Assembly (NCBI GenBank): GCA_963771135.1
Contig: CAVYSC010000002.1
Location: forward strand, 800,685-864,684
Source: an uncultured Acidobacteriaceae bacterium
GTDB lineage: Bacteria; Acidobacteriota; Terriglobia; Terriglobales; Acidobacteriaceae
Length of the DNA: 64,000 nucleotides
Reading direction: 5' to 3'
The notes under the pieces were generated by a model, which did no database searches, was not told the origin of the DNA, and worked only from the letters and a program-made list of their open reading frames with translations. The position numbers and the translations under genes are program-made. Below, piece after piece: positions 5,625 to 60,199 of the stretch (its first letter is position 1; each line of letters opens with the position of its first letter).

Positions 5625-5687
5625 CTGATCACTGACTACTGATCACTGACAACTGACAACTAACAACTGACAACTGTCTACTGTCCC
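5625..5687. repeat. heptanucleotide tandem array (9 units)
   Basis: ctgatca ctgacta ctgatca ctgacaa ctgacaa ctaacaa ctgacaa ctgtcta ctgtccc. Spans the stop of the SpoIIE gene. Confidence 0.85.
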
Positions 5688-7913: not shown

Positions 7914-7991
7914 CAGACTACCCAGCTACCAGCTACCGGCTACGGGCTACCGGCTACCAGCTTCTGACTACGGACTACGGACTACTCCCCC
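7914..7991. repeat. heptanucleotide tandem array (11 units)
   Basis: cagacta cccagcta ccagcta ccggcta cgggcta ccggcta ccagctt ctgacta cggacta cggacta ctccccc. Lies in the divergent region between the SpoIIE and GntR genes. Confidence 0.85.
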
Positions 7992-10120: not shown

Positions 10121-10186
10121 CCGCTGGAAGCTGGCTGCTGGCTACCGACTACTGGCATCTGGCTGCTGGTGGCTGAATCTCTGATA
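10117..10186. repeat. heptanucleotide tandem array (10 units)
   Basis: gtagccg ctggaag ctggctg ctggcta ccgacta ctggcat ctggctg ctggtgg ctgaatc tctgata. Starts at the permease stop codon. Confidence 0.8.
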
Positions 10187-10209: not shown

Positions 10210-10596
10210 ATGGAAACCACCCGCATCGGCAAGCGCGGAACCCTCGTCATTCCCGTCAAGCTGCGCCAGCGGTTCGCCCTGCAGGAGGGCGACCTCCTCG
10301 TCACCGAAGAGCGCGAGGACGGAATCCTGCTGCGCCCAGCTATCGCCGTTCCCGTCGAAATCTATACCCCCGAACGCAAAGCCGAGTTCCTCCTCAACAA
10401 CGCCGTCACCCAGGAGGATTACGACGACTCCTGCCGCATCATCCGCGATGATTTCGGCCTCAATCCCGCCGAAATCCCCCACACCGACCCCAGAATGCGC
10501 GCCAGGCTCCCCTCAAATGCCGAATTCGATAAGAGAATGAGCCGGACAAACCGCCGCATCGGAAAAGAGCAAGGCTTGCGGCGAAAGCATGCCTGA
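10210..10596 (+). CDS. AbrB/MazE/SpoVT-family antitoxin with extended C-terminal region
   Basis: METTRIGKRGTLVIPVKLRQRFALQEGDLLVTEEREDGILLRPA (swapped-hairpin AbrB fold motif). Overlaps the PIN gene by 8 nt. Confidence 0.8.
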   Translation: METTRIGKRGTLVIPVKLRQRFALQEGDLLVTEEREDGILLRPAIAVPVEIYTPERKAEFLLNNAVTQEDYDDSCRIIRDDFGLNPAEIPHTDPRMRARLPSNAEFDKRMSRTNRRIGKEQGLRRKHA

Positions 10597-11020
10597 CCTC
10601 CTGCGTGTTTTCCTCGATGCAAACATCCTTTTTTCGGCAGCATTGAAGCCAGAGAGCCGGTTCCTGGATTTCTGGAAAATGCGCAATCTGGTCCCGCTTA
10701 CTTCCATGTATGCGGCCGACGAGGCACGGCGAAACTGCGTCAACGATGCGCACGCGAGCCGGCTGGTCGCTCTGCTGGAACAGACCCATTTTGTTTCCGA
10801 TGTGCCCGGTGCGCTGCTTCCGGCACAGATCAGGCTACCCGCCAAAGATGCGCCCGTCCTCGCTGCGGCCATGCACGCCGGAGCGGATTACCTGATTACC
10901 GGCGACCGTCACCATTTCCAACGCTGGATGAACCTCCGCATCCCAACCGCCGTCGGTGTGATCGTTATCCAGGAGCCCTCGCAGTTTCTCGATGAGCACC
11001 TGGATCGCCTGGAGAAATGA
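10589..11020 (+). CDS. PIN-domain toxin
   Basis: VFLDANILFSAAL near the N-terminus and LITGDRHHF near the C-terminus, placing the acidic residues as expected for a PIN domain. Confidence 0.8.
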   Translation: MPDLLRVFLDANILFSAALKPESRFLDFWKMRNLVPLTSMYAADEARRNCVNDAHASRLVALLEQTHFVSDVPGALLPAQIRLPAKDAPVLAAAMHAGADYLITGDRHHFQRWMNLRIPTAVGVIVIQEPSQFLDEHLDRLEK

Positions 11021-11039: not shown

Positions 11040-11095
11040 CTGATGGCTGGCCGCCGGCTACTGGCCCCGGGCTACCGGCTACTGTCTCCTGTCCC
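11040..11095. repeat. heptanucleotide tandem array (8 units)
   Basis: ctgatgg ctggccg ccggcta ctggccc cgggcta ccggcta ctgtctc ctgtccc. The last codons and the stop of murC (minus strand) lie inside it. Confidence 0.8.
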
Positions 11096-12485: not shown

Positions 12486-12560
12486 ATAAGAAGTAAAACA
12501 GAATTCTGGAAATAGAAGTAAAGCAGAATTCTGGAAATAGAAGTAAGACAGATTCTCCGT
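12486..12560. repeat. AT-rich 25/26-bp tandem repeat, 2.9 copies, directly upstream of the murC start
   Basis: ataagaagtaaaacagaattctggaa / atagaagtaaagcagaattctggaa / atagaagtaagacagattctccgt. Each full copy carries a GAATTC palindrome. Confidence 0.75.
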
Positions 12561-16509: not shown

Positions 16510-16734
16510 TTACGCTACTTCTCGGGCGCGTACCACCTGATCCGCTTGTGGACCCTTTTGTCCCTGGATAATGTCGAACTCCACGTCGTCGCCTTCTTTC
16601 AGGCTCTTGTATCCATCCACCTGGATCGCGCTGTAGTGGACAAACACATCGGGTCCATCGTCACGGCCGATGAATCCATATCCCTTCGCGTTGTTGAACC
16701 ACTTCACCTTACCCTTGTACTGAGCCACAAACAC
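16510..16734 (-). CDS. cold-shock protein (CspA family)
   Basis: [31 protein letters not shown] (RNP1/RNP2). Start is GTG 16734 or GTG 16728; the latter has better SD spacing. Confidence 0.9.
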
Positions 16735-16850: not shown

Positions 16851-17025
16851 CGGGTGCCCCACATCTGCCTGACGTTGGCAGATGTGGGAGAGCATGACCT
16901 CCTGCAGCCTGCTGCGGCACCATTTCGCGGGCGCACACCCCAACGCGCCGGAGGCGCAACGCTGATTAGCCCAGCACTTCAGTGCTGGGAAAGCGGAGAA
17001 AAAAAAGGGAGTCCCGGAGGGAGGA
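16851..17025. repeat. composite ~175-bp two-hairpin intergenic element, copy A
   Basis: cgggtgccccacatctgcc-tgacgtt-ggcagatgtgggag (12-bp perfect stem), then ggcgcaacgctgattagcccagcacttcagtgctgggaaagc (8-bp stem), then gagtcccggaggga. Same order and orientation as 28790-28940. Confidence 0.75.
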
Positions 17026-17947: not shown

Positions 17948-19759
17948 GTGCGCGTCGACTGCTACCCCATCTCGCTGCTGCCCCGGCTCTCGCGGCTCTT
18001 TCTCGACTACACCGCGAGCCACGAGCCCATCGCGCCCTTCTACGCCGCCACTCCCTTCTCCTGGAAGCCCTCCGCGCACAATCCCACTCATCGCGCCGCC
18101 CTCGCCGATCTTCTCCGCGACCAAAACCTCTCGTACGGCGCCGGCGAAAAGACCCTCGCCAACATCGAGAAGCTCCGCAACGGTGCCAGTGCGATCGTCA
18201 CCGGCCAGCAGGTCGCGCTCTTTGGCGGACCCCTCTTCACGCTCTTCAAGGCCGCGACCGCCATCCATCGCGCCCAAAAAATCGATACGGATACCGGGGC
18301 CCCCGGCGAGCTTGCTCGCCGGGGTGGTGGCGCCGTCCCCATCTTCTGGCTCGCCTCGGAAGATCACGACCTCGCCGAAGTCGATCACGTCACGCTGCCC
18401 GCGCGCCACGCCCTGCACACGCTGCGCCTGCATTCTGAAGAACCACATTCCGGCCGCCCCGTCGGCTCCATCCCGCTCGGCCCGCAAATCACCCAGCTTC
18501 TCGACCGCGCCGCGGAGCTCATCGGCGGCACGCCCGAATTCGATCTCCTCGCCGCCGCGTACACGCCCCAGGCCACCTACGCCTCCGCCTTCGCGCGCTG
18601 GCTTTCCGCCGTCTTCGCCGATCACGGCCTCATCGTCCTCGACGCGTCCTCGCGCGCCTTCCACGCACTCGGCGCGCCCGTCCTGCGCCATGCCCTCGAG
18701 CACGCCGCCGACCTCGAAGCCGCCCTGCACCAGCGCGACCGCCTCCTTGCCGAGCGCGGCTACCACTCGCAGGTCCTCGTCGCGCCGGGCAGCAGCCTGC
18801 TCTTCCTCATCGACGAAGCCACCGGCGCGCGCCAACCCCTTCGCCACAAAAACGGCTCGTGGATCGCCACTCACATGGGTGCCCCACCCTTGTCCGCAGG
18901 ACAGGGTGGGATAGAGAAAACTTCGGGTGCCCCACCCTTGTCCGCAGGACAGGGTGGGATAGAGAAAATCTCGGGTGCCCCACCCTTGTCCGCAGGACAG
19001 GGTGGGCCAGAGAAAACCTCGGGTGCCCCACCCTTGTCCGCAGGACAGGGTGGGCCAGAGAAAACCTCCTACTCCACCTCAGATCTCCTCGCCATCCTCG
19101 ACGCCGCCCCCGAGCGCCTCAGCCCCAACGCCCTCCTGCGCCCCGTCTTTCAGGATTACCTGCTGCCCACCGCGGCCTACATCGCCGGCCCCGCGGAGAT
19201 CGCCTACTTCGCGCAGTCGCAGGTGCTCTATCAAGCGATCCTCGGCCGCAGCACGCCCATTCTGCCGCGCCTCAGCGCCACGCTCATTGAGCCGTCCATC
19301 GGCAAAGTCCTCGCCCAGCACGATCTCTCGCTCGCCGACATCCTCTCCGCGCATCCCGACGAGCTGGCCCACCGTCTCGGCGCGCGCGCCCTGCCCGTCG
19401 AAGGCAAGCTACAGCTCGCCGCCACCGGCAACGCGCTCGACGCGGAACTCCAGCAGCTCATCTCCTGGATGGAATCGCTCTCGCCCTCGCTCGGCCGCTC
19501 CGCTCAGGTCTCGGCCTCGAAAATGCGCTATCAGATGAACCGTCTCCGCCGCCTGGCCGCCAACTACCAGCTCCAGCGCGAAGGCAGCATCCGCCGCCAC
19601 GTCGACACGCTCTTCTTCAATCTCTTCCCTGACCGTCACCCGCAGGAGCGCAGCATCGGCGGCGTCGCGTATCTCTCCCGCACCGGATCCCCGCTGCTCT
19701 CGACGCTGATCGACCAATCCGCCGACGACTGCCCCGGCCACAAAGCCATCTGGCTGTGA
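17948..19759 (+). CDS. bshC: bacillithiol biosynthesis cysteine-adding enzyme BshC, carrying a 64-aa repeat insertion
   Basis: VTGQQVALFGGPLFTLFKAATAI, PERLSPNALLRPVFQDYLLPTAAYIAGPAEIAYF. About 600 aa versus my recollection of about 540 aa for BshC; the excess equals the repeat block. Confidence 0.8.
   Translation: MRVDCYPISLLPRLSRLFLDYTASHEPIAPFYAATPFSWKPSAHNPTHRAALADLLRDQNLSYGAGEKTLANIEKLRNGASAIVTGQQVALFGGPLFTLFKAATAIHRAQKIDTDTGAPGELARRGGGAVPIFWLASEDHDLAEVDHVTLPARHALHTLRLHSEEPHSGRPVGSIPLGPQITQLLDRAAELIGGTPEFDLLAAAYTPQATYASAFARWLSAVFADHGLIVLDASSRAFHALGAPVLRHALEHAADLEAALHQRDRLLAERGYHSQVLVAPGSSLLFLIDEATGARQPLRHKNGSWIATHMGAPPLSAGQGGIEKTSGAPPLSAGQGGIEKISGAPPLSAGQGGPEKTSGAPPLSAGQGGPEKTSYSTSDLLAILDAAPERLSPNALLRPVFQDYLLPTAAYIAGPAEIAYFAQSQVLYQAILGRSTPILPRLSATLIEPSIGKVLAQHDLSLADILSAHPDELAHRLGARALPVEGKLQLAATGNALDAELQQLISWMESLSPSLGRSAQVSASKMRYQMNRLRRLAANYQLQREGSIRRHVDTLFFNLFPDRHPQERSIGGVAYLSRTGSPLLSTLIDQSADDCPGHKAIWL
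18878..19069 (+). repeat. 4 x 48-bp perfect-phase tandem of a REP-like hairpin, in frame inside bshC
   Basis: ggtgccccacccttgtccgcaggacagggtggg[at/cc]agagaaaa[ct]ctc[gc] x4, translated as GAPPLSAGQGG(I/P)EK(T/I)S x4. The same hairpin occurs intergenically at 27617 and 27904. Confidence 0.9.
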
Positions 19760-21265: not shown

Positions 21266-21349
21266 CTGATCACTGCACGGCGAACACTACCCCTAGCCCG
21301 TAACCCCTAACCCCTATCCCCTGCCCCCTACACCCTACCCCCTGCCCTG
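21266..21349. repeat. heptanucleotide tandem array (12 units, C-rich variant)
   Basis: ctgatca ctgcacg gcgaaca ctacccc tagcccg taacccc taacccc tatcccc tgccccc tacaccc taccccc tgccctg. Confidence 0.8.
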
Positions 21350-22137: not shown

Positions 22138-22172
22138 CTGATCCCTGATCCCTTCAATCCCTATCCCCTCGC
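22138..22172. repeat. heptanucleotide tandem array (5 units)
   Basis: ctgatcc ctgatcc cttcaat ccctatc ccctcgc. Confidence 0.6.
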
Positions 22173-26822: not shown

Positions 26823-26890
26823 TTGCCAGCCTCCCCACCTTGTCGCTTCCGCTGCGACAGGTCATGCGAAGCCACATGTCTCCCGATCTC

Positions 26891-26918
26891 TGATCACTCA
26901 CGACTGATCACTCGCCCC
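26891..26918. repeat. heptanucleotide tandem array (4 units)
   Basis: ctgatca ctcacga ctgatca ctcgccc. Confidence 0.5.
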
Positions 26919-26985
26919 CTCACACCGCCGCCCCAATCGCCGCCACTCGACCCCTCGTCACTTCCTTGCTCAGCCGCTTCCGCCC

Positions 26986-27318
26986 TCACCCCCCGTCGCA
27001 CCCCAGCGAAAACCGCAGCGCCGCACAAATCTCCCGCATCCGCGCGGAGCTGAGCTGCGCCACCCGCTTGCCCAGATCGTCTCGCCGAACCGTGACCGCG
27101 TTGTGCAGATTCACCGCGCAGCGCGCTTTCATGCCGTCCTCTTCGCCCAGCACAACCTCAGAGGGCACGCCGCGGATCGTCGACGTGACGGGAGCAACGG
27201 TGACCGCGGAAAGATACTCGAGAGCGCTCTCCCGCGTCAGCACCACCACCGGCCGTCTTTTGTCCGGCCGCCCGAAGGAGTACAGCCGAACGTCGCCTCG
27301 TCCTATTCTTCCGGCCAC
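26986..27318 (-). CDS. mazF: MazF/PemK-family endoribonuclease toxin
   Basis: GRGDVRLYSFGRPDKRRPVVVLTRESALEYLSAVTVAPVTSTIRGVPSEVVLG...CAVNLHNAVTVRRDDL. The GTG at 27318 overlaps the antitoxin stop. Confidence 0.8.
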   Translation of the reverse strand: MAGRIGRGDVRLYSFGRPDKRRPVVVLTRESALEYLSAVTVAPVTSTIRGVPSEVVLGEEDGMKARCAVNLHNAVTVRRDDLGKRVAQLSSARMREICAALRFSLGCDGG

Positions 27319-27549
27319 GCCGCCCTCCCGGCCCACAATCTCATTTCTTCCGAGTCCTGCGGCTGCCCGGAGTAGCCCGCACGGTCCCGCTCCTCCAGCG
27401 CGCGGAGTTTCCAGCTTCCGCAAGTGCTCCCGCAGCGCTTCACGCACCAGAGCGGACCGGTTCCGCTTGAGCTTGCGCGCCGCCCGATCCGTAGCCGCCA
27501 GCAGCTTCCGGTCGAGCACTACCTGCACCGTTTCCATCGCTGTTCCCAT
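27303..27549 (-). CDS. ribbon-helix-helix (CopG-like) antitoxin, with one apparent frameshift at the A-run 27408-27410
   Basis: METVQVVLDRKLLAATDRAARKLKRNRSALVREALREHLRKLE, then in the +1 frame LRALEERDRAGYSGQPQDSEEMRLWAGRAAWPEE*. Removing one A from gaaactc restores a normal antitoxin. Confidence 0.7.
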
Positions 27550-27881: not shown

Positions 27882-28754
27882 TCACCGCCTCCGGCCCAGT
27901 CCCGGGTGCCCCACCCTTGTCCGGGGCCCCCGACGCGCCTGTAGTTGGCGCGACGGGGTGGTTGTCGTCGTTTCAGGCGACAGGGTGGGTCCAGCAGCAG
28001 CCTCTGCGGCAGCCGGCTCGCTGATCGCCGGTTTCTGATCCCCGATCCCTGATCCCTGATCACTGTTTTCCGGCTGCTGGCCGCTGGCCGCTGGCAGCTC
28101 GTCACTCATCCCCGCCTTGCGCAGCGCCTCCTTCCGATCCCACTCCGCGCGGATCACCGCCCTCCTGGCGTCCTCCTCCTCCATCCTCTTGAACTCCTGG
28201 CGGTATTTCTCCGCCCCCTCGTCGATCCCCCGCATCAACTCATCCCACCACGCTCTGGGATTCTCCGCCGCCTTCGGTTCGTCTGCGGCGGACGCAGTTC
28301 CTGCACCCTGCACCGTGGCCCCTGCCCCCTCCTCCATCCTCTCCACGAACCGCCCCATCAGCCCGTCCAGCTTTTCCGCGCCCATCCTCTCCGCCAGCGC
28401 CGCATACCGCAGCGCCGCATTCTGTGTCGCCACGCGCCGATCCAGCCTCCGCTCGGCGTCGCGGCACCCTTCCAGCATCACGCGCCCATTCGCCGGCGGA
28501 ATCGATCCCAGCGCCATCGCCCGCACCGTCTGCGACCGCACAAAGGCGATCGACGCCTCGTCATCCAGCAGCGGAATCGTCAGCGCCATCAGCCCGCTCG
28601 CCTCGCGATACCGCGCGTGCGCGTGGCAACGAGTCTCACCCACCGCAGGAATCCCCCGGCACGGCTCCCCATTCTCCCGCACCACCTCACACCGCCGCCC
28701 CACCACGTGACTCTGCGCTTCCTCCCGCCCGCTCTGCTCTTCCATTTCGCTCAT
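27882..28754 (-). CDS. hypothetical protein; the C-terminal third is encoded by repeat DNA, so the true 3' end is uncertain
   Basis: MSEMEEQSGREEAQSHVVGRRCEVVRENGEPCRGIPAVGETRCHAHARY... (Cys/His cluster, helical charged middle). From about 28111 downstream the frame reads through a heptamer array and a REP element. Confidence 0.45.
   Translation of the reverse strand: MSEMEEQSGREEAQSHVVGRRCEVVRENGEPCRGIPAVGETRCHAHARYREASGLMALTIPLLDDEASIAFVRSQTVRAMALGSIPPANGRVMLEGCRDAERRLDRRVATQNAALRYAALAERMGAEKLDGLMGRFVERMEEGAGATVQGAGTASAADEPKAAENPRAWWDELMRGIDEGAEKYRQEFKRMEEEDARRAVIRAEWDRKEALRKAGMSDELPAASGQQPENSDQGSGIGDQKPAISEPAAAEAAAGPTLSPETTTTTPSRQLQARRGPRTRVGHPGLGRRR
27904..27994. repeat. GGGTGCCCCAC-type REP with an enlarged, internally structured loop
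   Basis: gggtgccccacccttgtccgg...cgcgcc-tgtagtt-ggcgcg...gcgacagggtgggtcc. Confidence 0.6.
28021..28111. repeat. heptanucleotide tandem array (13 units)
   Basis: ctgatcg ccggttt ctgatcc ccgatcc ctgatcc ctgatca ctgtttt ccggctg ctggccg ctggccg ctggcag ctcgtca ctcatcc. Confidence 0.8.
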
Positions 28755-28789
28755 GACCTGTTTCGCTCTCCTTGCCCCTGGTGAACTCT

Positions 28790-28940
28790 CGGGTGCCCCA
28801 CATCTGCCCGAAGTTGGCAGATCTGGGAGGCCACTGCTCCATCCCCGGCGTAACTCCCCGCGCCGAAGGCGCAACGCTGACTAGCCCAGCACTTCAGTGC
28901 TGGGAAAGCTCGCATGAAAACTCGAGTCCCGGAGGGACGG
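28790..28940. repeat. composite two-hairpin intergenic element, copy B
   Basis: cgggtgccccacatctgcc-cgaagtt-ggcagatctgggag, then ggcgcaacgctgactagcccagcacttcagtgctgggaaagc, then gagtcccggaggga. Compare 16851-17025. Confidence 0.75.
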
Positions 28941-28949
28941 CGCTGCAAT

Positions 28950-28985
28950 CCCCAAAAAAGAGAGGCTCGCCACCCGGCGAGCCTC
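28950..28985 (-). terminator. intrinsic terminator (minus strand)
   Basis: Perfect 10-bp stem gaggctcgcc-accc-ggcgagcctc (28962-28985), followed on the minus strand by tcttttttgggg. Confidence 0.6.
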
Positions 28986-29002
28986 AACCCTGACCCCTAC
29001 TC

Positions 29003-29033
29003 AAAAGGCCCCGCACGGGGCGGAGCCTTTTTT
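29003..29033. terminator. bidirectional-looking intrinsic terminator
   Basis: aaaa-ggccccgc-acggg-gcggagcc-tttttt. The 8-bp stem has one mismatch, a T6 tail on the plus strand and an A4 run upstream. Confidence 0.5.
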
Positions 29034-29308
29034 CTTACCATCTATATTCAGAATACCAATTCCAGACAATTAGCCCGCCAAATATCTTTGGCCTTTTTCG
29101 CCTAACTCGCGCGCCAAACAAACAACTTATCCTAGCCCATTACTTCCGTAAGGGCTTGACAATGGTTTTTCATACTCCTGGAATCCCTGGGGTGCGAACA
29201 CGCGAACCCTATTGACCAAACGATAACAGGGATTGCCTTCCTCGCCACCCTATGAAACCTGCCCCTAACCCCCATGGATTCAACTCGGTTTACCACCCCG
29301 ACACCCCA

Positions 29309-31042
29309 TCAATCCAATCGATACTTCGTCTCCGCCAGGTGGTAGAGCGGGCGCCAGACCAATCGGTTGATGGTGACGACCATGAGGGCCATGATCATGG
29401 TTCCGGCTAACAGGACGGCGTAGTTGGCCTGGTCGCTGGCGGCGCTGATCTGCGCGCCCAGGCCGAGGGTCATGAGCGTGCGTCCTTTCACCTGAAAGTA
29501 CTCGGCGACGATGGAGGCGTTCCACGCTCCTCCCGATGCGGTGATGAGCCCGGTGATGAGGAAGGGGAAGATGCCGGGGAGGATGACGGTGGTCCATCGC
29601 TGCACGTTCGAGAAGCGGAAGAGCGTGGCGATCTCCCTGAGCTCGGAGGGAATGGCCTGGGCTCCGGCAATGACGTTGAAGAGGATGTACCACTGGGCCG
29701 CGAGCAGCATGAGCGCGATGGAGCCGAAGCCGAGCGAGACGCCGAGACGCGCGAGCGCGATGAGGATGAGCGGAAAGAGCGCGGTGGCGGGGAAGGACGC
29801 GGCGATCTGCGCGATGGGCTGGAGCAGGCGCGAGAGGCGAGGCTGGAAGCCGATGGCGACGCCGACGGGAATGGTCCAGAGCGAGCCGAGGAGGAGCGCG
29901 GCGTTGACGCGGGCGAAGGTGAGGCCGGCGCCGGCGAGGAGGGTGAGGAACTCGGTGCGGTGGATCTCTTTGAGGAGCAGGGCGGCGTGGAAGGCGGCGA
30001 CGGCGATGAGGCCGAGCAGTGCGACGCCAACGATCCAATAGGCAGCGGTGACGCCGCGGCGGGATTCGGTGCGCGGCGCGCGCGGCTGGCGGGCGCGGTC
30101 GGCGAGGGTGGAGTAGAACCACTCCGACATGGGGCCGAAGGTGCGGCGCCCGATGGAGGCGAGGATGCGGGAGTTGCGCAGGGCGTGGAGGACGGGCGAG
30201 GTGACGCGCTCCTCGCTTTCAAGAGTCTCGAATTTGAACTTGTCGGACCAGGCGATGAGCGGGCGCCAGAGGAGCTGGTCGATGACGACGATGATGAGGA
30301 CCATGGCGGCGAGTCCCCAGGCGAGGGCACGGTAGTCGCCCGCGGAGGCGGCGGTTTGCAGATACGAGCCGAGGCCGGGGAGGCGATATTCGCGGCTGCC
30401 GACGGGGAACATCTCGCAGACCATGAGGAAGAACCAGCCGTTGGCGACGGAGACGATGGAGTTCCAGATGAGGCCGATGGCGGCGAAGGGCAGCTCCAGC
30501 TGGAAGAGGCGCTGGAGGCGGGAGAAGCGGTTGATCTCACAGGCTTCCATGAGCTCGCGGGGAATGCTTTTGAGCGAGGTGTAGAAGCTGAAGGCCATGT
30601 TCCAGACTTCGCCGGTGAAGATGAGGAGGATGGCGCCCGCCTCAATACCGAGCTGGCGGGATGGGAAGAGGGAGATCATGGCCAGCATGACGCCGGGGAG
30701 AAAGCTGAGGACGGGGATGGACTGGAGGATGTCGAGAGTGGCGATGAGGAGGGCTTCAAGGCGCTTGTTGTAGGCGGCGGTGTATCCGTAGGCGATGGCG
30801 AAGGCGAGCGAGAGCGCGTAGGCGACGAAGATGCGGACGAGGGAGTAGACGGCGTAGAGCGGGAGATGCGAGGGCGTGAGGTGGATGACGACTTCGGGGA
30901 TGGCGGCGCTGAACCAGAACTTGGCGATCCAGAGAATGGCGTAGAAGCCGGCGAGGAGGGCGGCGGCGACGGTGAGATCGAGGAAGAAGGGCCAGGTGCG
31001 CTCGACGGCGAGCTGTTTGGAGAGGGTGAAACGGGGCCTCAT
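29309..31042 (-). CDS. ABC transporter permease, fused double BPD-type (nitrate/sulfonate/bicarbonate-like family)
   Basis: MRPRFTLSKQLAVERTWPFF... with two permease repeats (each with an EAA-like loop, e.g. LKSIPRELMEACEINRFSRLQRLFQLELP and AIPSELREIATLFRFSNVQRWTTVILP). ATG 31042 overlaps the ATPase TGA (ATGA). Confidence 0.85.
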   Translation of the reverse strand: MRPRFTLSKQLAVERTWPFFLDLTVAAALLAGFYAILWIAKFWFSAAIPEVVIHLTPSHLPLYAVYSLVRIFVAYALSLAFAIAYGYTAAYNKRLEALLIATLDILQSIPVLSFLPGVMLAMISLFPSRQLGIEAGAILLIFTGEVWNMAFSFYTSLKSIPRELMEACEINRFSRLQRLFQLELPFAAIGLIWNSIVSVANGWFFLMVCEMFPVGSREYRLPGLGSYLQTAASAGDYRALAWGLAAMVLIIVVIDQLLWRPLIAWSDKFKFETLESEERVTSPVLHALRNSRILASIGRRTFGPMSEWFYSTLADRARQPRAPRTESRRGVTAAYWIVGVALLGLIAVAAFHAALLLKEIHRTEFLTLLAGAGLTFARVNAALLLGSLWTIPVGVAIGFQPRLSRLLQPIAQIAASFPATALFPLILIALARLGVSLGFGSIALMLLAAQWYILFNVIAGAQAIPSELREIATLFRFSNVQRWTTVILPGIFPFLITGLITASGGAWNASIVAEYFQVKGRTLMTLGLGAQISAASDQANYAVLLAGTMIMALMVVTINRLVWRPLYHLAETKYRLD

Positions 31043-34807: not shown

Positions 34808-34866
34808 CCAGGGATCAGTAGTCAGGGATCAGGGATCAGGGGTCAGGGGTGTCAGTGATCAGGGTC
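34808..34866. repeat. heptanucleotide tandem array (8 units)
   Basis: ccaggga tcagtag tcaggga tcaggga tcagggg tcagggg tgtcagtga tcagggt. Confidence 0.8.
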
Positions 34867-47283: not shown

Positions 47284-47332
47284 GACTGCTGCCGGCGGTA
47301 GTCAGTCATCGATGGCCAGCAGTCAGCGATCT
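47284..47332. repeat. degenerate heptanucleotide array
   Basis: gactgct gccggcg gtagtca gtcatcg atggcca gcagtca gcgatct. Confidence 0.4.
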
Positions 47333-49229: not shown

Positions 49230-49274
49230 GGGGCAGGAGTCAGGAGACAGGAGTCCGTAGTCCGTGATCAGGGG
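49230..49274. repeat. heptanucleotide tandem array (6 units)
   Basis: ggggcag gagtcag gagacag gagtccg tagtccg tgatcag. Confidence 0.7.
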
Positions 49275-49492: not shown

Positions 49493-52164
49493 TTACGCGT
49501 GCGCCGGATCGGCGCGTTCGGTGTCGACGTGCAGGTCTTTGAAGGCAGCCTGGGCTTTCTTCGCGTCGAACTTGCCGTCGCGGACGAGTTTCGAGAGCGT
49601 CGCGGTGACGACGGACTCCGCGTTGACCTCGAAGTGGCGGCGCAGGTGCTCGCGATTGTCGCTGCGGCCGAAGCCGTCGGTGCCGAGCGAGACGAGGCGC
49701 GTGGTGAGCCACGGCGCCAACTGGTCGGGCACGGCCTTCATGTAATCCTCGCGGCGATGATGGGACCTTTGGTTTTCGCGAGCGTGGAGACGATGTACGG
49801 GGTCTTCTCCGGCTTGTCGGGATGCAGGCGGTTCCAGCGCTCGACGCCGAGGGCTTCGCGGCGCAGCTCGTTGTAGCTGGTGACGCTCCAGACATCGGTG
49901 TGCACGCCGTATTTGTCCGCGAGGATGTCGTGCGCGCGAAGGACTTCGTTGAGGATGGGACCACTGCCGAAGAGCTGTGCCACGGCCTTGCCGGCGGGCG
50001 CAGCCTTGAGGCGATAGATGCCGCGCAGAATGCCTTCGCGCGCGCCTTCCGGCATCTCGGGCATGGCGTAGTCCTCGTTGTACATGGTGATGTAGTAGAA
50101 GAGGGCCTCGTCTTCCTGGTACATGCGGCGCAGGCCATCCTGGAGGATCACGGCCATCTCGTAGACGTAAGCGGGATCGTAGCTGACGCAGGTGGGGATG
50201 ACGCTCATGAGCACGTGACTGTGGCCATCCTGGTGCTGGAGGCCTTCGCCGAGCATAGTGGTGCGGCCCGCGGTGCCGGCCATGAGGAAGCCCTTGCCGC
50301 GCGCATCCGCGAAAGCCCACATCATGTCGCCGACGCGCTGGAATCCGAACATGGAGTAGTACATGTAGAAGGGAATCGTGGGCACGCGGTAATTGGCGTA
50401 CGCCGTGCCCGCGGCGGTGAAAGAAGCCATGGAGCCAGCTTCGGTGATGCCTTCCTCGAGGATCTGGCCGTCGCGCTCTTCGCGGTAGTAGAGGAGCATG
50501 TCGACGTCGTGCGGCTTGTACTTCTGGCCTTCGCTGGCGTAGATGCCGACCTGGCGGATGGCGGACTCGAGGCCGAAGGTGCGGCCTTCATCGGGCACGA
50601 TGGGCACGATCGAGCTTGCCGGTCTTCTCGTCCTTCATGAGATGGCGCAGCATGCTGACGAAGCCCATGGTGGTGGAGACGGCGCGGCCGCTGCGAGCCG
50701 CTGGTCCACTCGCCGAAGTCTTGGATCGGGGGCGCCTGGAAGTCGATCTTCGGCACTTCGCGCCTGGGCATGTAGCCGCCGAGCGAGCGGCGGCGCTCCT
50801 GCATGTAGAGCATCTCGGGCGATTCCTGCGGCGGACGATAGAGCTTGCCGGCGCGGGCATCGGCCTCGGGGATGGGCAGGTCGAAACGCTTGGTAAAATC
50901 GACGAGCGCGTCGTCCGCCAGCTTCTTTTCCTGGTGCGAGGCGTTGCGCGCCTGGGTGCTGCCGAGTCCGTAGCCTTTGACGGTTTTGGCGAGGATGACG
51001 GTGGGACCGCCCTTGTGCTCGACGGCGCGCTTGTAGGCGTTGTAGATCTTGCGGGCGTCGTGTCCGCCGCGATGCAGGTGGAAGATTTCGTCGTCGGACA
51101 TGTGCTCGACGAGCTTGAGCAGCTCAGGATACTTGCCGAAGAACTCGCTGCGGATGTAGGCGCCGCCCTTGGCCTTGAAGGCCTGGTATTCGCCGTCGAC
51201 GCACTCTTCCATGCGCTTGAGCAGCAGGCCGGTGTGGTCGCGCTCGAAGAGAGCGTCCCAGTCGGAACCCCAGATGACTTTGATGACGTTCCAGCCCGCG
51301 CCGAGGAAGACGGCTTCCAGCTCGTCGATGATGCGGCCGTTGCCGCGCACCGGACCGTCGAGGCGCTGGAGGTTGCAGTTGACGACGAAGATGAGGTTGT
51401 CGAGCTTCTCGCGGCGAGCGATGGAGAGCGCGCCGAGGGAATCGACTTCGTCGGTTTCGCCGTCGCCGAGGAAGGCCCAGATTTTGCGCGGCGTGGTCTG
51501 GATGAGACCGCGATGCTCGAGGTAGCGCATGAAGCGCGCCTGATAGATCGGCGTTCAGCGGGCCAATGCCCATGGAGACGGTAGGGAAACGCCAGAAATC
51601 GGGCATGAGCCAGGGGTGCGGATACGAGGAGAGGCCGGGCGTTTCGCGCAGCTCGTGGCGGAAGTTGAGGATGCGCTGCTCGTCGAGGCGGCCGAGCAGA
51701 AAGGCGCGCGAGTAAATGCCCGGGCTGGCGTGGCCCTGGAAGTAGATGAGATCGCCGGGCTGATCGCCATAGGCGGCGTGGAAGAAATGGTTGAAGCCGA
51801 CTTCGAGCAGCGTGGCCAGCGAAGAATAGGTGGCGATGTGGCCGCCGATGCCGTGGTCCTTCTTGTTCTGGCCGTGCACCATGGCGAGGGCGTTCCAGCG
51901 GATGAGGCTCTCGATGCGGCGCTCGAGCGCGCGGTCACCGGGATACGGGACTTCTTCATGCTTCGGGATGGTGTTGACGTAGGGCGTGACCAGCTCGCTG
52001 GGCTGCGAAATGCCGGCCTCGCGGGCGCGCTGTTTGAGCGCGGCGAGGATCTCAGCGCCCTGATCAGGGCCCTCGGCGACGACCACGTCGTCAAACGCTT
52101 CGATCCACTCGCGAAGCTCCTGGGAAAAATCAGTCTGGGCGGGAACGGTGACTTTCGTTGTCAT
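49493..52164 (-). CDS. aceE: pyruvate dehydrogenase E1 component (homodimeric AceE type), split by four apparent frameshifts
   Basis: Collinear AceE segments lie in ORFs 51124..52164, 50322..51530, 50588..50860, 49738..50607 and 49493..50320. Junctions are near 51550 (extra C), 50695 (extra C), 50611 (extra G) and 49752 (missing nt). Each junction restores conserved sequence, e.g. PLNAIYQARFMRYLEHRG and EKTGKLIVPIVPDEGRTFG. Confidence 0.9.
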
Positions 52165-52940
52165 AGAACCTCAGTAAAAACGTGTTCGCCATCGTTGGCC
52201 GCGCGGGCCGTCTCGGCGCCGGCTTCGGCGAGAATCTCGCGGCGCCACTCGTGGGCGGGCAGGCCACGCGCTTCCAGCCAGTGTTCGAGATGCGCGACGG
52301 CGTCTTCTGTCTCTGCGGTGCGCGCCGGCCATGGGGCGCAGAGAATGCGCGTGGGGCCGGATCCTTCGCGGGCGCGGACGATGGACTCATGCGCGACGCG
52401 GAAGAGGGCAATCACGTCCTGCGCGTCAACGGGAATGGAGATGAGGGGATTGGTGTCGGGGGCGGACCGGGTGCGGGGCTTGCTGATTGTGGGCGCGGCG
52501 GGCGCGTCCTCCACAAAGAGGACAGGCAGCCTGGCGCCGCCGGCGATGGTTTGCGCTTCGCGCAGGAGATCTTCCGCCGCTCCGCTGGAGACGACGACGG
52601 TGACGCGCTCGTTCTTTTTCAGCCGGTCCGCGGTAGCGCGCGCGAGGGCAGCGATGACGCGCTCGGCGAAGGGCGCGGACGTCTCGGTGAGGTGTATGGC
52701 CGTGGGGATTGGATCGTCCGCCACGAGCGTGTCGCCGGTGCGCAACTCGGAGCTGACGGCGGCCAGCGCGGCCTCGCGGCCCTCGCGCGCGTGCCCATGG
52801 CCGTTGGCTTGCTGCACGCCGAGGCGCAGGCGCAGAGTGAGCTCGTAGAGCTGGCGGAATTTCGCGTCGCTGATGAGGGTGTGGCCGTGCTTGCCGTTCG
52901 CCGCGGCAGACGGAACCCTGCTGCTTGCCTGGATGGCCAT
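52161..52940 (-). CDS. degenerate E1-alpha-like (TPP-dehydrogenase-like) protein, translationally coupled to aceE
   Basis: KFRQLYELTLRLRL, REGREAALAAV, VTVVVSSGAAEDLLREAQTIAGGARLPVLFVEDA and IPVDAQDVIALFRVAHESIVRAREGSGPTRI follow the E1-alpha order, but the GDG TPP motif is absent. Its TGA overlaps the aceE ATG (ATGA at 52161-52164). Confidence 0.4.
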   Translation of the reverse strand: MAIQASSRVPSAAANGKHGHTLISDAKFRQLYELTLRLRLGVQQANGHGHAREGREAALAAVSSELRTGDTLVADDPIPTAIHLTETSAPFAERVIAALARATADRLKKNERVTVVVSSGAAEDLLREAQTIAGGARLPVLFVEDAPAAPTISKPRTRSAPDTNPLISIPVDAQDVIALFRVAHESIVRAREGSGPTRILCAPWPARTAETEDAVAHLEHWLEARGLPAHEWRREILAEAGAETARAANDGEHVFTEVL

Positions 52941-53260: not shown

Positions 53261-53337
53261 GGAGACGGGAGACGGGAGACAGGAGTCGGTAGCCGGTAGC
53301 CGGTAGCCGGTAGCTGGTAGCCGGTGATCAGAAGCCA
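53261..53337. repeat. heptanucleotide tandem array (11 units)
   Basis: ggagacg ggagacg ggagaca ggagtcg gtagccg gtagccg gtagccg gtagctg gtagccg gtgatca gaagcca. Lies just downstream of the argJ stop. Confidence 0.85.
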
Positions 53338-55416: not shown

Positions 55417-55469
55417 GCGGTGATCAGTTGTCAGTGATCAGTTGTCAGTGATCAGTGGTCTGTTTCAGC
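55414..55469. repeat. heptanucleotide tandem array (8 units)
   Basis: taggcgg tgatcag ttgtcag tgatcag ttgtcag tgatcag tggtctg tttcagc. Begins with the gene's own TAG. Confidence 0.85.
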
Positions 55470-55487
55470 CCTGTGGTTCAGGCAAAA

Positions 55488-56768
55488 ATGCGACTGACCG
55501 TGAGGATTTCGATTGTCGCCGTGATGCTCGTGGCGATGTGCGCCTCCGCCAGCGCGCAGATGCCGATGGGCGGGACGCCGCACACGTTCGAGCAGGAGAT
55601 TAGAAGCCACGACACGTCGGGTACGGCTGCCGAGCCGAATTCCGTGCCGCAGCCGATGTGGATGGCGATGCACGGCGCGTGGATGACGATGTTTCACGGC
55701 AATGCCTTCGTTGCCGATATCCAGCAGACGAGCCCGCGCGGCGGCGACAAACTCTTCTCGACCAACTGGTGGATGCCGATGGCGCAGCGCGGCTGGGGCC
55801 GCAGCCAGCTAACGCTGCGCGCCATGCTGAGCCTGGAACCGGCGACGATTACCGGGCGGCAGTATCCATTGCTGTTTCAGCAGGGTGAGACGGCGTATGG
55901 GAATCCGATTGCGGATGGGCAACATCCGCACGATTTCTTCATGGAGACGGCGGCGATCTACGATTATTCGATTTCGAGCCGGACGCTGGTGAGTTTCTAT
56001 CTGGCTCCGGTCGGCGATCCCGCGATTGGGCCGATTGCGTTTCCGCATCGGGTGTCGGCTTTGGAAGATCCGGTCGCGACGCTCGGCCATCATCAGGAGG
56101 ATTCAACGCACATCTCCGACGGCGTGGTGACGGCGGGGCTGGCGCACGGGTGGGCGCGGATGGAGGCCAGCGGATTTCATGGCCGCGAGCCGAACGAGCA
56201 GCGGTGGGCAATTCAGCAGGGAGCGATGGATTCGTGGTCGCTGCGGCTGACGCTGCAACCCGGACAAAACTGGAGCGGGCAGGTTTCCTACGGACGGCTG
56301 CACAGTCCGGAAGCGCTGTATCCGACGGAGGACCAGGCGCGCACGACCGCATCGATCCTGTACAACCGAGCTTTGCATGCCGGGAACTGGGCGAACACGG
56401 TGGCGTGGGGACACACGCGGTCGATTCCGGATGGCGCCATTGAGAACAGCTACCTGCTCGAGTCGACGCTGCGCTTTTGGCGACGCAATTATGCATGGAC
56501 GCGGATCGAGGATGTCGCGCGCACGAATGAGCTGCTGCTCGGGGAGCGTCCTCTGCCGCCTGGTTTCCAGGAGGAGCCGGTGGGGCGCGTGCAGGCCTAT
56601 ACGTTCGGGTACGATCGCGATTTGCCGCGGCTGCCGCATTTCGAGACAGCTCTGGGCGCGCAGGTGACCGCATACGCCGACAGCACGAAATTGCAGCCGG
56701 TGTATGGAACGGATCCATTGGGGGTGGTGGTGTTTTTGCGGGTGCGGCCGGTGGGGCGGGGACAGTGA
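55488..56768 (+). CDS. hypothetical exported protein (possibly an outer-membrane beta-barrel)
   Basis: Signal peptide MRLTVRISIVAVMLVAMCASASAQ. Aromatic-rich alternating pattern. No family recognised. Confidence 0.5.
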   Translation: MRLTVRISIVAVMLVAMCASASAQMPMGGTPHTFEQEIRSHDTSGTAAEPNSVPQPMWMAMHGAWMTMFHGNAFVADIQQTSPRGGDKLFSTNWWMPMAQRGWGRSQLTLRAMLSLEPATITGRQYPLLFQQGETAYGNPIADGQHPHDFFMETAAIYDYSISSRTLVSFYLAPVGDPAIGPIAFPHRVSALEDPVATLGHHQEDSTHISDGVVTAGLAHGWARMEASGFHGREPNEQRWAIQQGAMDSWSLRLTLQPGQNWSGQVSYGRLHSPEALYPTEDQARTTASILYNRALHAGNWANTVAWGHTRSIPDGAIENSYLLESTLRFWRRNYAWTRIEDVARTNELLLGERPLPPGFQEEPVGRVQAYTFGYDRDLPRLPHFETALGAQVTAYADSTKLQPVYGTDPLGVVVFLRVRPVGRGQ

Positions 56769-56808
56769 GGGGAGTCGTCGAGAGTTGCTCACCTTATTCG
56801 CGATGAGG

Positions 56809-56835
56809 CTGCGGACAAGGGTGGGGCACCCAGCT
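56809..56835. repeat. REP half-site (reverse orientation)
   Basis: gctgcggacaagggtggggcacccagc is the reverse complement of gggtgccccacccttgtccgcagc. Confidence 0.55.
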
Positions 56836-56886
56836 TGATTCCTGGTCTTGATTCCGAGGCTGGGCCGCGTTAACGTAGCGGTACAC

Positions 56887-57197: not shown

Positions 57198-57206
57198 AGA
57201 AGAACC

Positions 57207-57524
57207 GTGAAAACGCTTCCAGCAGGAAAATTCAAGGCGCAGTGCCTCGCGTTGATTGATGATGTGTACGAGCACGGAGGCGAGGTGTTGATCACGAAGA
57301 GGGGCAAGCCCAAGGCAAAACTGGTGCCGATTGCCGAAAGGAAGCCCGAGAGCACCTTTGGGTTTCTGAAAGGGAGAGCCAGGGTAGTGGGCGACATCGT
57401 CTCGCCGATCGTTGAGCCCGGGGAATGGGATCAGGATGTCTTTCCGCCGAGCACTCGGGAGCCGGGGCGTGACCGCGAGAAGATCAAACCGGAGCGTTCC
57501 GGGAGGGCAAGGCGGCGCGCGTGA
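57207..57524 (+). CDS. Phd/YefM-family antitoxin
   Basis: KTLPAGKFKAQCLALIDDVYEHGGEVLITKRGKPKAKLVPI. GGAG lies 7 nt before GTG 57207. Its TGA overlaps the vapC GTG (GTGA at 57521-57524). Confidence 0.75.
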   Translation: MKTLPAGKFKAQCLALIDDVYEHGGEVLITKRGKPKAKLVPIAERKPESTFGFLKGRARVVGDIVSPIVEPGEWDQDVFPPSTREPGRDREKIKPERSGRARRRA

Positions 57525-57913
57525 TCGCACTGGACACGAATGCTGTTGTCTGGCTCGGCGAGAATCCGGAGCGGCTATCCCGTGCGGCAGTTCGGGCCAT
57601 TGAGAGCGCGGTGGAGAGCGGCGAAGGTCTCATGGTTTCCAGCGCATCCTTTTATGAGATTGCGCTGGGGATTCAGCGCGGACGAATTGAGACTTCGGCC
57701 ACGATCGAGGAGCTTCTGGCTGCCATTGAGCGCCGGTTCATGGTCGCTCCGATGACGGCGGAGATTGCGACCGCCGCGGCTCAGCTTCCCACGGAATTTC
57801 CTCGCGATCCGTTTGACCGCATCATTGCCGCGACGGCCATGGCGCACCGCGCTCCTCTGGTTACAGCGGATGAGCAGATTCGCAAATCCCGCGTTCTTCG
57901 CGTGATCTGGTAG
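57521..57913 (+). CDS. vapC: VapC-family PIN-domain toxin
   Basis: IALDTNAVVWL...SSASFYEIAL...DPFDRIIAATAMAHRAPLVTADEQI. Confidence 0.9.
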   Translation: MIALDTNAVVWLGENPERLSRAAVRAIESAVESGEGLMVSSASFYEIALGIQRGRIETSATIEELLAAIERRFMVAPMTAEIATAAAQLPTEFPRDPFDRIIAATAMAHRAPLVTADEQIRKSRVLRVIW

Positions 57914-58724: not shown

Positions 58725-58771
58725 GGCGGGGATCAGTGGTCAGTGATCAGTTGTCAGTTGTCAGTGATCAG
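58722..58771. repeat. heptanucleotide tandem array (7 units)
   Basis: taaggcg gggatcag tggtcag tgatcag ttgtcag ttgtcag tgatcag. Begins with the thiG TAA. Confidence 0.85.
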
Positions 58772-59387: not shown

Positions 59388-60098
59388 ATGCGGATCCGCC
59401 ATGTTCCCACGCTCCTGGCCGTCGCGCTGGCTGCCGGCACCCTGGCCGCGCAGTCACGGCCGACGAGCCCCGCGCAGGCACAGCTTTCCGACCTTACCGT
59501 GGGGTCGGGCCGCATCGTGTATACGTTCGATCAGCCGGAACTGCAGCCGCCCCACTACACGATCACGATTGAAGAGAATGGCCTGGGGCGTTTTGTGTCG
59601 AAAGCCGGCGCTCCACCCTCCGATGGGAGCGACGACGTGTATCCGGCGCCAATGGACCGCGAAATTCGCGTGGATCCGGGACTGCTCGCGGATCTTTTTC
59701 GCTATGCGAGGGCGCACGAGTACTTCAACGAAGACTGCAACCGCAGCGGGCGGCGGGCGTTTACGGGCAATAAGACGATCACGTACGTTGGGCCGGATGG
59801 CCGCGGGTCGTGCGCGTTTGTGTGGGCGTCCGATGCCGAGTTGCAGCAGCTGTCGGACCGGTTGAACGCGGTCGCGTTCACGCTGGAGATCGGGCGGCGG
59901 CTGGACGTGGAAGTGCACCACTATCCGCTGGGCCTGGACGCGGAGCTGGAGTCGCTGCAAAACGCGATCAAGGAGCAGCAAGCGTCGGACTTGCCGAATA
60001 TCGCGCCGGAGTTGCAGTACATCGCCTCCGATCAGGACGTGATGGACCGGGTGCGGCGGCGCGCGCTGGCGCTGCTGTCGGGAGCGAGGAGCCAGTAG
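59388..60098 (+). CDS. hypothetical exported protein
   Basis: Signal peptide MRIRHVPTLLAVALAAGTLAAQS. ATG lies 3 nt after the ruvC stop. No family recognised. Confidence 0.5.
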   Translation: MRIRHVPTLLAVALAAGTLAAQSRPTSPAQAQLSDLTVGSGRIVYTFDQPELQPPHYTITIEENGLGRFVSKAGAPPSDGSDDVYPAPMDREIRVDPGLLADLFRYARAHEYFNEDCNRSGRRAFTGNKTITYVGPDGRGSCAFVWASDAELQQLSDRLNAVAFTLEIGRRLDVEVHHYPLGLDAELESLQNAIKEQQASDLPNIAPELQYIASDQDVMDRVRRRALALLSGARSQ

Positions 60099-60199
60099 CC
60101 AGTAGCCGGTAGCCGGTGGCCAGTAGCCGGGAGCCGGTAGGCGGTGGCCAGTAGTCAGTAGCCGGTAGCCAGCAGCCGGTGATCAGGAGTCCGGAGTCG
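60088..60199. repeat. heptanucleotide tandem array (16 units, the largest in the window)
   Basis: ggagcca gtagcca gtagccg gtagccg gtggcca gtagccg ggagccg gtaggcg gtggcca gtagtca gtagccg gtagcca gcagccg gtgatca ggagtcc ggagtcg. The upstream gene's TAG lies in unit 2. Confidence 0.9.

Follow-up and report, generated by a model that had tools for sequence, protein, structure and literature searches.

Short tandem arrays with a period of seven nucleotides (nt) recur throughout a 64-kb stretch of DNA from an uncultured member of the Acidobacteriaceae (assembly GCA_963771135.1, contig CAVYSC010000002.1, positions 800,685 to 864,684; hereafter the window, in which all positions are counted from the first letter). 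The array of 16 units at 60088-60199 is one of 16 such sites. Their orientation follows the strand asymmetry of the DNA and not the direction of the neighbouring genes: the G-rich form of the repeat (G-form) always lies on the G-rich strand, and it changes strand where the GC skew changes sign. Several of the arrays also differ in the number and type of their units between strains that are about 99% identical. We consider it moderately likely that they are hypermutable heptanucleotide simple sequence repeats (SSRs) that arise by replication slippage, have been amplified in this lineage, and owe their polarity to expansion or survival that depends on orientation relative to the replication fork.

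Period-7 arrays in the window

The initial annotation, made by reading the sequence, listed 16 sites with arrays of 4-16 units at a strict 7-nt period. We scanned the whole window with Tandem Repeats Finder (TRF) and with an independent self-match scan. Of the 16 listed starts, 12 have a period-7 array reported by TRF at or beside them. In the self-match scan, period 7 gave 12 arrays, period 14 gave 11 and period 12 gave four, whereas each of the periods 4-6, 8-11, 13 and 15 gave none or one (none at 5, 8, 10 and 11). The 12 strict period-7 arrays compare with 0.03 expected from 30 dinucleotide-preserving shuffles, and at a looser threshold the same shuffles gave 0.33 expected against 18 observed. 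Multiples of 3 aside, period 7 alone exceeded the shuffles.

When the sites are read in register, the heptamer structure is visible at all 16. Twelve of the sites are robust. The original range of unit numbers was too generous for the four weak ones (4775, 22138, 26891 and 47284), which have two or three units or degenerate units; nor is the period perfectly strict, since array 34808 contains one unit of 9 nt. Site 22138 is a true array locus because about 5-6 units are present there in another strain (contig L204). The same arrays, often base for base, are found in independent Illumina (Logan, MEGAHIT), long-read metagenome and NCBI assemblies from several samples, and they are therefore not assembly artefacts. 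They make up 1.4% of the window sequence.

Unit consensus and gene context

Units from all 16 sites fit one position weight matrix. Read on the G-rich strand, the 113 units have the consensus G-[T/G]-[A/G]-[G/A]-[T/C]-C-[A/G] (GKRRYCR), with G at position 1 in 102 units and C at position 6 in 96. The commonest units are GTGATCA (14 copies), GTAGCCG (12), GTTGTCA and GGGATCA (7 each) and GTAGTCA (5). The palindrome TGATCA has 27 copies in the window, 16 of them inside arrays.

Gene identities were taken from Pfam and from gene calls on independent contigs. The arrays are found in convergent, divergent and tandem intergenic regions and, as the first reading had it, in both orientations relative to the flanking genes. 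Fifteen of the 16 are intergenic or clip the ends of open reading frames (ORFs), so the statement that all arrays do so stands with one exception. This is the array at 28021-28104, which lies in frame within a hypothetical ORF of 345 amino acids (aa) on the - strand. The ORF is called in two independent assemblies, and the array encodes a low-complexity linker within it, with coding-like codon-position GC on both sides.

A stop codon lies at most 25 nt away in nine of the 16 arrays, and several arrays lie 14-40 nt upstream of start codons. That several arrays begin at or contain a stop codon, as had been noted, was seen again, and it is mostly a by-product of the period-7 sequence itself: in the majority of the arrays, each of the three frames of at least one strand has a stop codon, so that the ending of an ORF at an array is largely automatic. 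Two arrays overlap stop codons in such a way that they could alter C-terminal tails, and the SpoIIE-domain protein has 738 aa in the window and 718 aa in the strain contig L213. In phase-variation contingency loci, repeats in a coding region or promoter switch a gene, typically one for a surface or restriction-modification function, on and off as units change. Units of the arrays do change between strains, yet the arrays mostly follow the stops of housekeeping genes (thiG, argJ, murC).

The terminator scan, Rfam and folding support the view that the arrays are not accounted for by terminators, repetitive extragenic palindromic (REP) hairpins or coding sequence. At gathering thresholds, Rfam gave no match to an array, Acido-Lenti-1 being the sole family found in the window. 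In the scan for terminators (a GC-rich hairpin followed by a T-run), no match overlapped an array between 46 and 64 kb. Folding z-scores of the arrays lie between -0.3 and -2.7, with similar values for the two strands. Arrays of the GTAGCCG type fold no better than shuffled sequence, and TGATCA-rich arrays fold modestly, with z of about -2.3 to -2.7 on both strands; in the latter, the G-form strand folds 1.9-2.1 kcal/mol better than the opposite strand. We rejected a hairpin reading of the arrays on these values. REP elements and bacterial interspersed mosaic elements (BIMEs), MITEs (miniature transposable elements with inverted repeats) and CRISPR were rejected as well: the units are contiguous, with no spacers and no terminal inverted repeats.

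Array orientation follows the GC-skew strand

The GC skew of the + strand is unusually strong, about -0.2 up to about 29 kb and about +0.15 afterwards, with a local jump from -0.31 to +0.28 at 29,336. At third codon positions, the + strand skew to the left of 29,336 is -0.46 in + strand genes and -0.35 in - strand genes; to the right it is +0.19 and +0.39, respectively. Within each half the sign is the same for genes on both strands, which indicates a strand-wide asymmetry of the replication type and not an effect of gene orientation. Three independent assemblies (L204-L206) have the same gene order on the two sides of the switch. The switch sits in an AT-richer intergenic region of about 550 nt (28760-29310), and its sign change is sharp, of the origin type. 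Absolute skews of about 0.2 are also found in several related Terriglobales loci (L009, L010, L020, L047, L081).

It is the GC-skew strand that sets the orientation of the arrays, a feature that the initial annotation overlooked. To the left of the switch, 9 of 9 arrays have the C-form (CTGnnnn-type) on the + strand; to the right, 7 of 7 have the G-form there, irrespective of the direction of the neighbouring genes. The G-form is thus on the G-rich strand in 16 of 16 arrays (two-sided p = 3e-5), and in 12 of the 12 robust ones. Identical specific units occur on either side of the switch in mirrored orientation, which shows that motif orientation is involved and not composition alone. Inside arrays, the ten commonest units lie on the G-rich strand 62 times and on the C-rich strand once, whereas outside arrays the counts are 43 and 44, even though heptamers of matched composition are 1.4-2.1 times commoner on the G-rich strand. 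Polarity is a property of the arrays, not of the heptamer words.

The units within an array are also ordered. GTGATCA is the final unit on the G-form strand in six of nine arrays and the first in one (permutation p = 0.001, with array ends set by eye). The 3' end of the G-form strand, where this conserved unit tends to be, would face away from an origin located at the skew switch.

Arrays vary between strains and are sparse in related species

For strain comparisons we used contigs 99.0-99.9% identical to the window from several soil metagenome assemblies (contigs of this analysis carry an L number). Between strains that are about 99% identical, unit number or type differs at six of about ten comparable arrays: 60088 (16 versus 9 units), 22138 (2 versus about 5-6), 10117, 5625, 7914 and 55418. 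Whole units are what change. The gaps of a 12.7-kb alignment between the window and L213 are concentrated accordingly, with 23 of 26 gap positions inside two arrays. At 5625, 22138 and 60088 the 3' end of the G-form is conserved between strains and the 5' part is variable.

The comparison was extended to an orthologous boundary in other species, as had been suggested with the first description. The spacer between thiG and ruvC is plain in the nearest species, with no array; farther away in the lineage, thiG is followed by an ordinary hairpin terminator. The window has 1.9 arrays per 10 kb, about 12 times the density of 0.16 per 10 kb across 1.41 Mb of sequence from 80 related species. The related species carry the unit types of the window sparsely, e.g., CTGACAA/CTGGCTA in L040 and CTGATCC in P. 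acidisoli (arrays in L011). Because the arrays vary between strains, are missing from the orthologous spacer and are sparse in relatives, we regard them as labile and recently amplified, not as conserved elements.

One relative has an array at a matching place. In L066 (10770-10803), three to four TTGTCAG units directly follow the thiG stop, a unit and a position shared with the window; ThiG identity is 79%, and closer relatives have no such array. This looks like an independent gain at the same kind of site.

Two larger differences between strains lie near arrays. The 2.3-kb segment 24647-26970 of the window is replaced in L204 (2926-4371) by an unrelated 1.4 kb, and its right junction is about 60 nt from the array at 26890-26910; the ORFs of this segment matched no known family. 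The ORF at 55473-56768 (431 aa, in the segment 55418-56844) is present in the window, L001 and L002 and absent from L003, with heptamers at the junction and a REP-like element at the far end; it has no match in Pfam or NCBIfam.

Host and wider distribution of the repeat class

As had been surmised, the host is not a cyanobacterium; it belongs to the Acidobacteriaceae by its ThiG neighbourhood, gene content and Acido-Lenti-1 matches. The ThiG neighbourhood is best matched by metagenome-assembled genomes of Acidobacteriaceae (95%) and then by Paracidobacterium acidisoli 4G-K13 (91%), and the species has no entry among the 185,579 representative genomes searched. The gene content fits this family: carboxypeptidase-regulatory/TonB-dependent receptors, Ser/Thr kinases with TPR or PD40 repeats, BshC and Wzi. 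The Acido-Lenti-1 small RNA (RF01687) fits the same placement, with two copies above the gathering threshold, at 16944-16989 and 28859-28904, both on the - strand.

A metagenome scan for seven consecutive consensus units matched at least 120 contigs, with 19-75% GC. Among the matches listed are arrays of GTTATCA, which is the reverse-complement rotation of the known repeat TAACTGA; the units of the window thus differ by single bases from those of a heptamer class that is widespread. In other metagenome organisms, arrays of this consensus often form close inverted pairs, a G-form array being followed by a C-form array 100-400 nt on (L133 775/937, L134 149/350, L159 10415/10517, L162 343/528, L183 1250/1350 and L200 12196/12368), unlike the uniformly oriented arrays of the window.

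Table 1. Heptanucleotide arrays of the window and the skew switch. The strand is that of the G-form; L numbers denote strain contigs.
Feature	Position	Strand	Units	Setting	Other strains
Array (weak)	4775-4795	-	3 units; G-form GTAGCCG GTGATCA GTGGTCA on - strand	Between two convergent genes, 7 nt from TonB stop	Same in L212, L213
Array	5625-5687	-	9 units; + strand CTGATCA/CTGACAA	Overlaps stop of SpoIIE-domain gene, upstream of TonB	Three different versions in three strains; TGATCA end conserved
Array	7914-7985	-	About 10 units; + strand CYGGCTA / CGGACTA	Divergent region, from start of SpoIIE-domain gene to start of GntR gene	Clustered unit substitutions at the same length in L213, L217
Array	10117-10172	-	About 8 units CTGGCTR	Starts 2 nt past stop of gene 9311-10120; upstream of MazE-like gene	Difference of exactly 7 nt plus unit-type changes
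Array	11040-11095	-	About 8 units CYGGCTA, CTGTCYC	Between convergent PIN and murC genes, overlapping murC 3' end	Same in L212-L214
Array	21266-21347	-	One CTGATCA unit, then about 8 CCCCTAN; - strand AGGGGKT, G-quadruplex-capable	Ends 35 nt upstream of + strand ORF	
Array (weak)	22138-22151	-	Two CTGATCC units	Upstream of Ser/Thr kinase gene	About 5-6 units in L204
Array (weak)	26890-26910	-	CTGATCA, divergent unit, CTGATCA	Inside strain-variable segment, about 60 nt from junction	
Array	28021-28104	-	12 units; CTGATCC block, then CTGGCCG block	84 nt = 28 codons	Same in L204, L205
GC-skew switch	29336			Cumulative GC-skew minimum; array orientation flips	
Array	34808-34863	+	About 8 units GGGATCA/GGGGTCA, last GTGATCA	Divergent region, Crp-family gene / TonB-dependent receptor gene	
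Array (weak; listed start 47284)	47298-47332	+	Degenerate, GTAGTCA ... GCAGTCA	Between kinase gene start and Wzi gene stop	
Array	49230-49271	+	About 6 units GGAGTCA, GGAGACA, GTAGTCC, last GTGATCA	Upstream of Wzi gene	
Array	53261-53330	+	10 units; GGAGACG x3, GGAGTCG, GTAGCCG x5, last GTGATCA	13 nt from ArgJ stop	
Array	55418-55459	+	6 units; GTGATCA alternating with GTTGTCA	Starts 1 nt past ABC ATPase stop; at breakpoint of gene present in window, absent in L003	Shortened in L003
Array	58729-58771	+	6 units; GGGATCA GTGGTCA GTGATCA GTTGTCA GTTGTCA GTGATCA	4 nt past thiG stop, upstream of ruvC	Same in L001-L003; none at orthologous spacer in close relatives
Array (focal)	60088-60199	+	16 units; GTAGCCR-rich, ending GTGATCA GGAGTCC GGAGTCG	Contains stop codon of ORF 59388-60098; upstream of pstS	9 units of other types (GTGATCA/GGAGTCA/GTAGTCA) in L001

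Other features of the window

A REP-like hairpin, GGGTGCCCCAC(CC), is present on the + strand at 4733, 16852, 18877-19068, 21184, 27617, 27904 and 28791, and as its reverse complement at 56821. The copies at 18877-19068 lie in the BshC gene, where a 48-nt unit with the REP-like element forms four in-frame repeats encoding GAPPLSAGQGGIEKTS four times. Strain contig L212 has one 48-nt copy (BshC of 579 aa, versus 603 aa in the window), and the repeat is therefore a coding variable-number tandem repeat. Two intergenic direct repeats are unrelated to the heptamers: a 26-nt repeat of 2.1 copies at 4625-4679, after a FAD/NAD oxidoreductase gene, and an AT-rich 25-nt repeat, AGAAGTAAAACAGAATTCTGGAAAT, of 2.8 copies at 12489-12556, upstream of murC.

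Toxin-antitoxin pairs are dense, and several of them adjoin arrays: MazE-like/PIN, PhdYeFM/PIN and PemK/ribbon-helix-helix (10210-11020; 57200-57913; about 26985-27547). Compared with Illumina contigs, the window has single-base indels at 11348, 27407, 27863, 27971 and 31065. Of these, the indel at 11348 splits murC; in L212-L214 the gene is intact (470 aa). The gene of the pyruvate dehydrogenase E1 component (aceE, 49738-52940) appears split into several frames. The indels and the broken aceE are probably residual consensus errors of long reads and not pseudogenes.

Origin of the arrays

Slippage would explain the arrays as follows. Slipped-strand mispairing at replication would gain, lose and homogenise units. 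The arrays would persist where they do little harm, mostly in the first nucleotides after stop codons and in other intergenic DNA, and the one array within a gene would be tolerated as an in-frame multiple of 21 nt. Which way an array points relative to the replication fork would further affect its expansion or survival, as orientation does for CTG/CAG repeats in Escherichia coli, and a single orientation would accumulate; judging from the skew, the G-rich strand would be the leading strand. A sequence-specific cellular function of the arrays need not be invoked, and any function is probably nil or incidental. Genes next to an array may incidentally be affected in their C-terminal tails or in spacing.

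Several observations weigh against slippage with fork-dependent polarity. The arrays 4775, 11040, 28021 and 58729 are identical in all strains examined, so not every array is in flux. Pure slippage leaves unexplained why unrelated loci, and other phyla as well, share the same few unit types, and why TGATCA is so concentrated in arrays; some sequence-specific factor may be involved. The strict polarity comes from one 64-kb window with one skew switch, and no further array was found in the 4.8 kb that follow the window on its right. No dnaA domain was found among the ORFs around 25-38 kb, and the DnaA box TTATCCACA, with at most one mismatch, occurs in the window at chance-level frequency, with no copy near 29.3 kb and no cluster. 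The terms origin and leading strand are therefore taken from the skew alone.

Polarity is also weak in the wider set. Among the metagenome matches listed, the flank skew relative to the G-form was positive for 56 and negative for 44 of 100 arrays, and neighbouring arrays formed 11 co-oriented pairs versus 20 opposite ones. Agreement was better where skew was stronger: among the same matches, 11 arrays were concordant versus 3 at an absolute skew of at least 0.1. Terriglobales-like contigs gave 11 versus 9 overall, with 5 of 5 arrays concordant at an absolute skew of at least 0.08 and low-skew arrays mixed, and in skewed relatives 3 of 3 orientable arrays were concordant. Strict polarity therefore belongs to the high-skew lineage and not to the whole class.

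A different reading takes the arrays to be binding sites of a lineage-specific DNA- or single-strand-binding protein, with one protomer per heptamer and a polarity tied to the fork or to a chromosomal role, in the manner of the FtsK orienting polar sequences (KOPS) or of Chi. The protein could be a nucleoid, replication or segregation factor, or an oligonucleotide/oligosaccharide-binding (OB) fold or cold-shock protein. Such binding would fit the consensus shared by all 113 units, strongest at G1 and C6, the sharing of units between unrelated loci and between distant taxa, the concentration of TGATCA in arrays and the strict polarity. CspB reportedly binds heptamer repeats, with one protein per heptamer (PMC4679880), and the window has a cold-shock-domain gene at about 16510-16734. 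However, single copies of the units are non-polar (43 versus 44), unlike KOPS and Chi, the arrays are not conserved at orthologous sites, unit type changes between 99%-identical strains, and close relatives manage with about 12 times fewer arrays. We regard this reading as unlikely.

The arrays could also be products or signals of a replication-strand-specific process and not of passive slippage. Each would grow directionally from a fixed TGATCAG anchor at the switch-distal end, on one template strand, and a dedicated activity would make or read them. This activity may be a single-strand-specific nuclease, a transposase or polymerase, or a fork-associated binding protein, and the same process may orient the REP-like hairpins and add to the extreme GC skew. 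We think such a process distinctly improbable.

A role at the RNA level, as 3'-end, insulator, stability, translational-coupling or 5'-untranslated-region elements, is suggested by the position of the arrays: nine of the 16 are no more than 25 nt from a stop codon, and several are found 14-40 nt upstream of starts. An influence on transcript stability or translational coupling has been suggested for the short tandemly repeated repetitive (STRR) sequences of cyanobacteria (PMC2670836), and TAACTGA repeats have been proposed as sites of translational regulators (PMC4679880). Yet the orientation of the arrays follows the skew strand, and an mRNA would carry the G- or the C-form according to the direction of the gene alone. 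Since array orientation ignores the direction of transcription, a strand-specific role in RNA is unlikely. Nor did the scan place a terminator-like hairpin with a T-run on an array at 46-64 kb; the GTAGCCG-type arrays fold close to shuffled sequence, and Rfam has no match. Relatives do not keep the array at the 3' end of orthologous thiG genes, and the distant ones have ordinary hairpin terminators in this place. An RNA-level explanation thus has little probability.

Dispersal of the same units and polarity would both be explained if a strand-specific mobile-DNA process had left the arrays as footprints or used them as targets, for example single-strand transposition of the IS200/IS605 or REP-associated tyrosine transposase (RAYT) type acting on one replication template. 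Insertion of IS200/IS605 elements is biased by the direction of replication. The REP-like hairpin GGGTGCCCCAC is polar too, with 10 of 10 copies left of the switch on the + strand and the one copy on the right reverse-complemented. One array is at the breakpoint of a strain-variable gene (55418-56844), and another variable segment ends about 60 nt from array 26890. Against this, the ORF at the breakpoint matches no known family, a scan of roughly 45 ORFs found neither a transposase nor a RAYT domain, and the array flanks have no conserved sequence in common (judged by eye). The variation between strains consists of gain, loss or replacement of units in place, which is typical of slippage and not of insertion. 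We consider mobile DNA a very improbable source. Finally, the single-base indels of the window, one of which splits murC, could raise the suspicion that errors of sequencing or assembly created the arrays or the skew switch, but this is almost certainly not so, with the arrays recurring in independent Illumina and NCBI assemblies and the gene order across the switch reproduced in L204-L206.

Comparison with known repeats

Knowledge of tandem heptamers in bacteria goes back to 1990, and in several phyla no class of long repeats is commoner. Mazel et al. (1990) are said to have described the STRR units CCCCAGT, TTGGTCA and CAACAGT. None of these three occurs as two perfect tandem copies in the window, in any rotation or on either strand, and TAACTGA, GGGAATC and GGGGATT form no tandem there. 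The arrays are therefore not members of these named families. The initial annotation had likened them to cyanobacterial STRRs, and the resemblance holds for the general kind, i.e., dispersed, mostly intergenic heptamer tandems that vary between strains, and not for the canonical units. The host differs as well, being an acidobacterium and not a heterocystous cyanobacterium. The STRRs of filamentous cyanobacteria are repeats of about 7 bp of unknown function (PMC2670836) that have been used for strain fingerprinting (PMC5088731).

Heptamer repeats are already documented outside cyanobacteria, in Xanthomonas, Burkholderia, Beggiatoaceae and Bacteroidetes (PMC4679880, PMC4692102), which lowers the novelty implied by the first description. 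In the open-access literature we found no description of heptamer DNA repeats in Acidobacteria. As summarised in PMC4679880 and PMC4692102, heptanucleotides were the most abundant category of long simple sequence repeats (LSSRs) in most genomes of Mrazek et al. 2007, and polymerase slippage was proposed. The summary in PMC4679880 gives repeats of 5-11 nt as richest in Burkholderia, cyanobacteria, actinobacteria and Xanthomonas, and does not name Acidobacteria. The arrays have the features of this class, i.e., head-to-tail 7-nt repeats, concentration in non-coding DNA and unstable copy number, and they resemble the LSSRs of that survey, as summarised, in being 7-nt tandems longer than expected by chance, intergenic and patchy across genomes. 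They differ in having many unit variants under one consensus in place of one dominant unit, and in a polarity that has no counterpart in the summaries.

Two better-described families are close in some respects. TAACTGA repeats are intergenic and patchily distributed in Beggiatoaceae, some cyanobacteria and Bacteroidetes (MacGregor 2015, PMC4679880). Their reverse-complement rotation GTTATCA fits the consensus of the window and is one substitution away from both GTGATCA and GTTGTCA. In 'Maribeggiatoa', however, a single exact unit predominates, just upstream of start codons and fixed to gene direction (PMC4679880), whereas the units of the window are heterogeneous, mostly follow stops and are oriented independently of gene direction. 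The repeats GGGAATC of Xanthomonas and GGGGAYT of Nostoc form G-quadruplexes and are 89-93% intergenic (Rehm et al. 2015, PMC4692102). They are like ours in lying in intergenic DNA near a neighbouring ORF and in varying in length and sequence between relatives, and one array alone, at 21266-21347 (AGGGGKT), is of their G-rich type. Unlike them, the window has a polarity of 16 of 16, no array at the orthologous site of a sister species, and mostly units that are not capable of forming G-quadruplexes. The Xanthomonas repeats have no preference for the leading or lagging strand and are largely kept between the same genes in two species (PMC4692102).

Two other systems bear on the polarity. KOPS and Chi are likewise tied to the replication strand and flip at origin and terminus, but they are single 8-mers that are skewed everywhere, genes included, unlike the single unit copies of the window (43 versus 44). 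The instability of CTG/CAG repeats in E. coli depends on their orientation relative to the direction of replication, although this concerns 3-nt units on plasmids, and to our knowledge polar distributions across a genome have not been shown to result. The units of the window contain a periodic CAG/CTG as well, and the TGATCA palindrome would allow different slipped hairpins on each strand.

This lineage is a useful one for the study of such repeats, with about one array per 4 kb, active turnover and strict orientation while isolated words are non-polar. The combination implies that it is the array state and not the motif that senses the direction of replication, which makes the mechanism experimentally approachable. 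In practice, the arrays can serve to tell apart strains of abundant, uncultured Acidobacteriaceae in soil, and gene callers will misplace 3' ends at them. Compared with the known cases, what is new is the strict polarity with respect to the skew strand, confined to arrays, the terminal TGATCA anchor, the heterogeneous units under one consensus, and the high density with rapid turnover of units. The strand-locked behaviour is unexpected in the light of the published strand analysis of the Xanthomonas repeats (PMC4692102).

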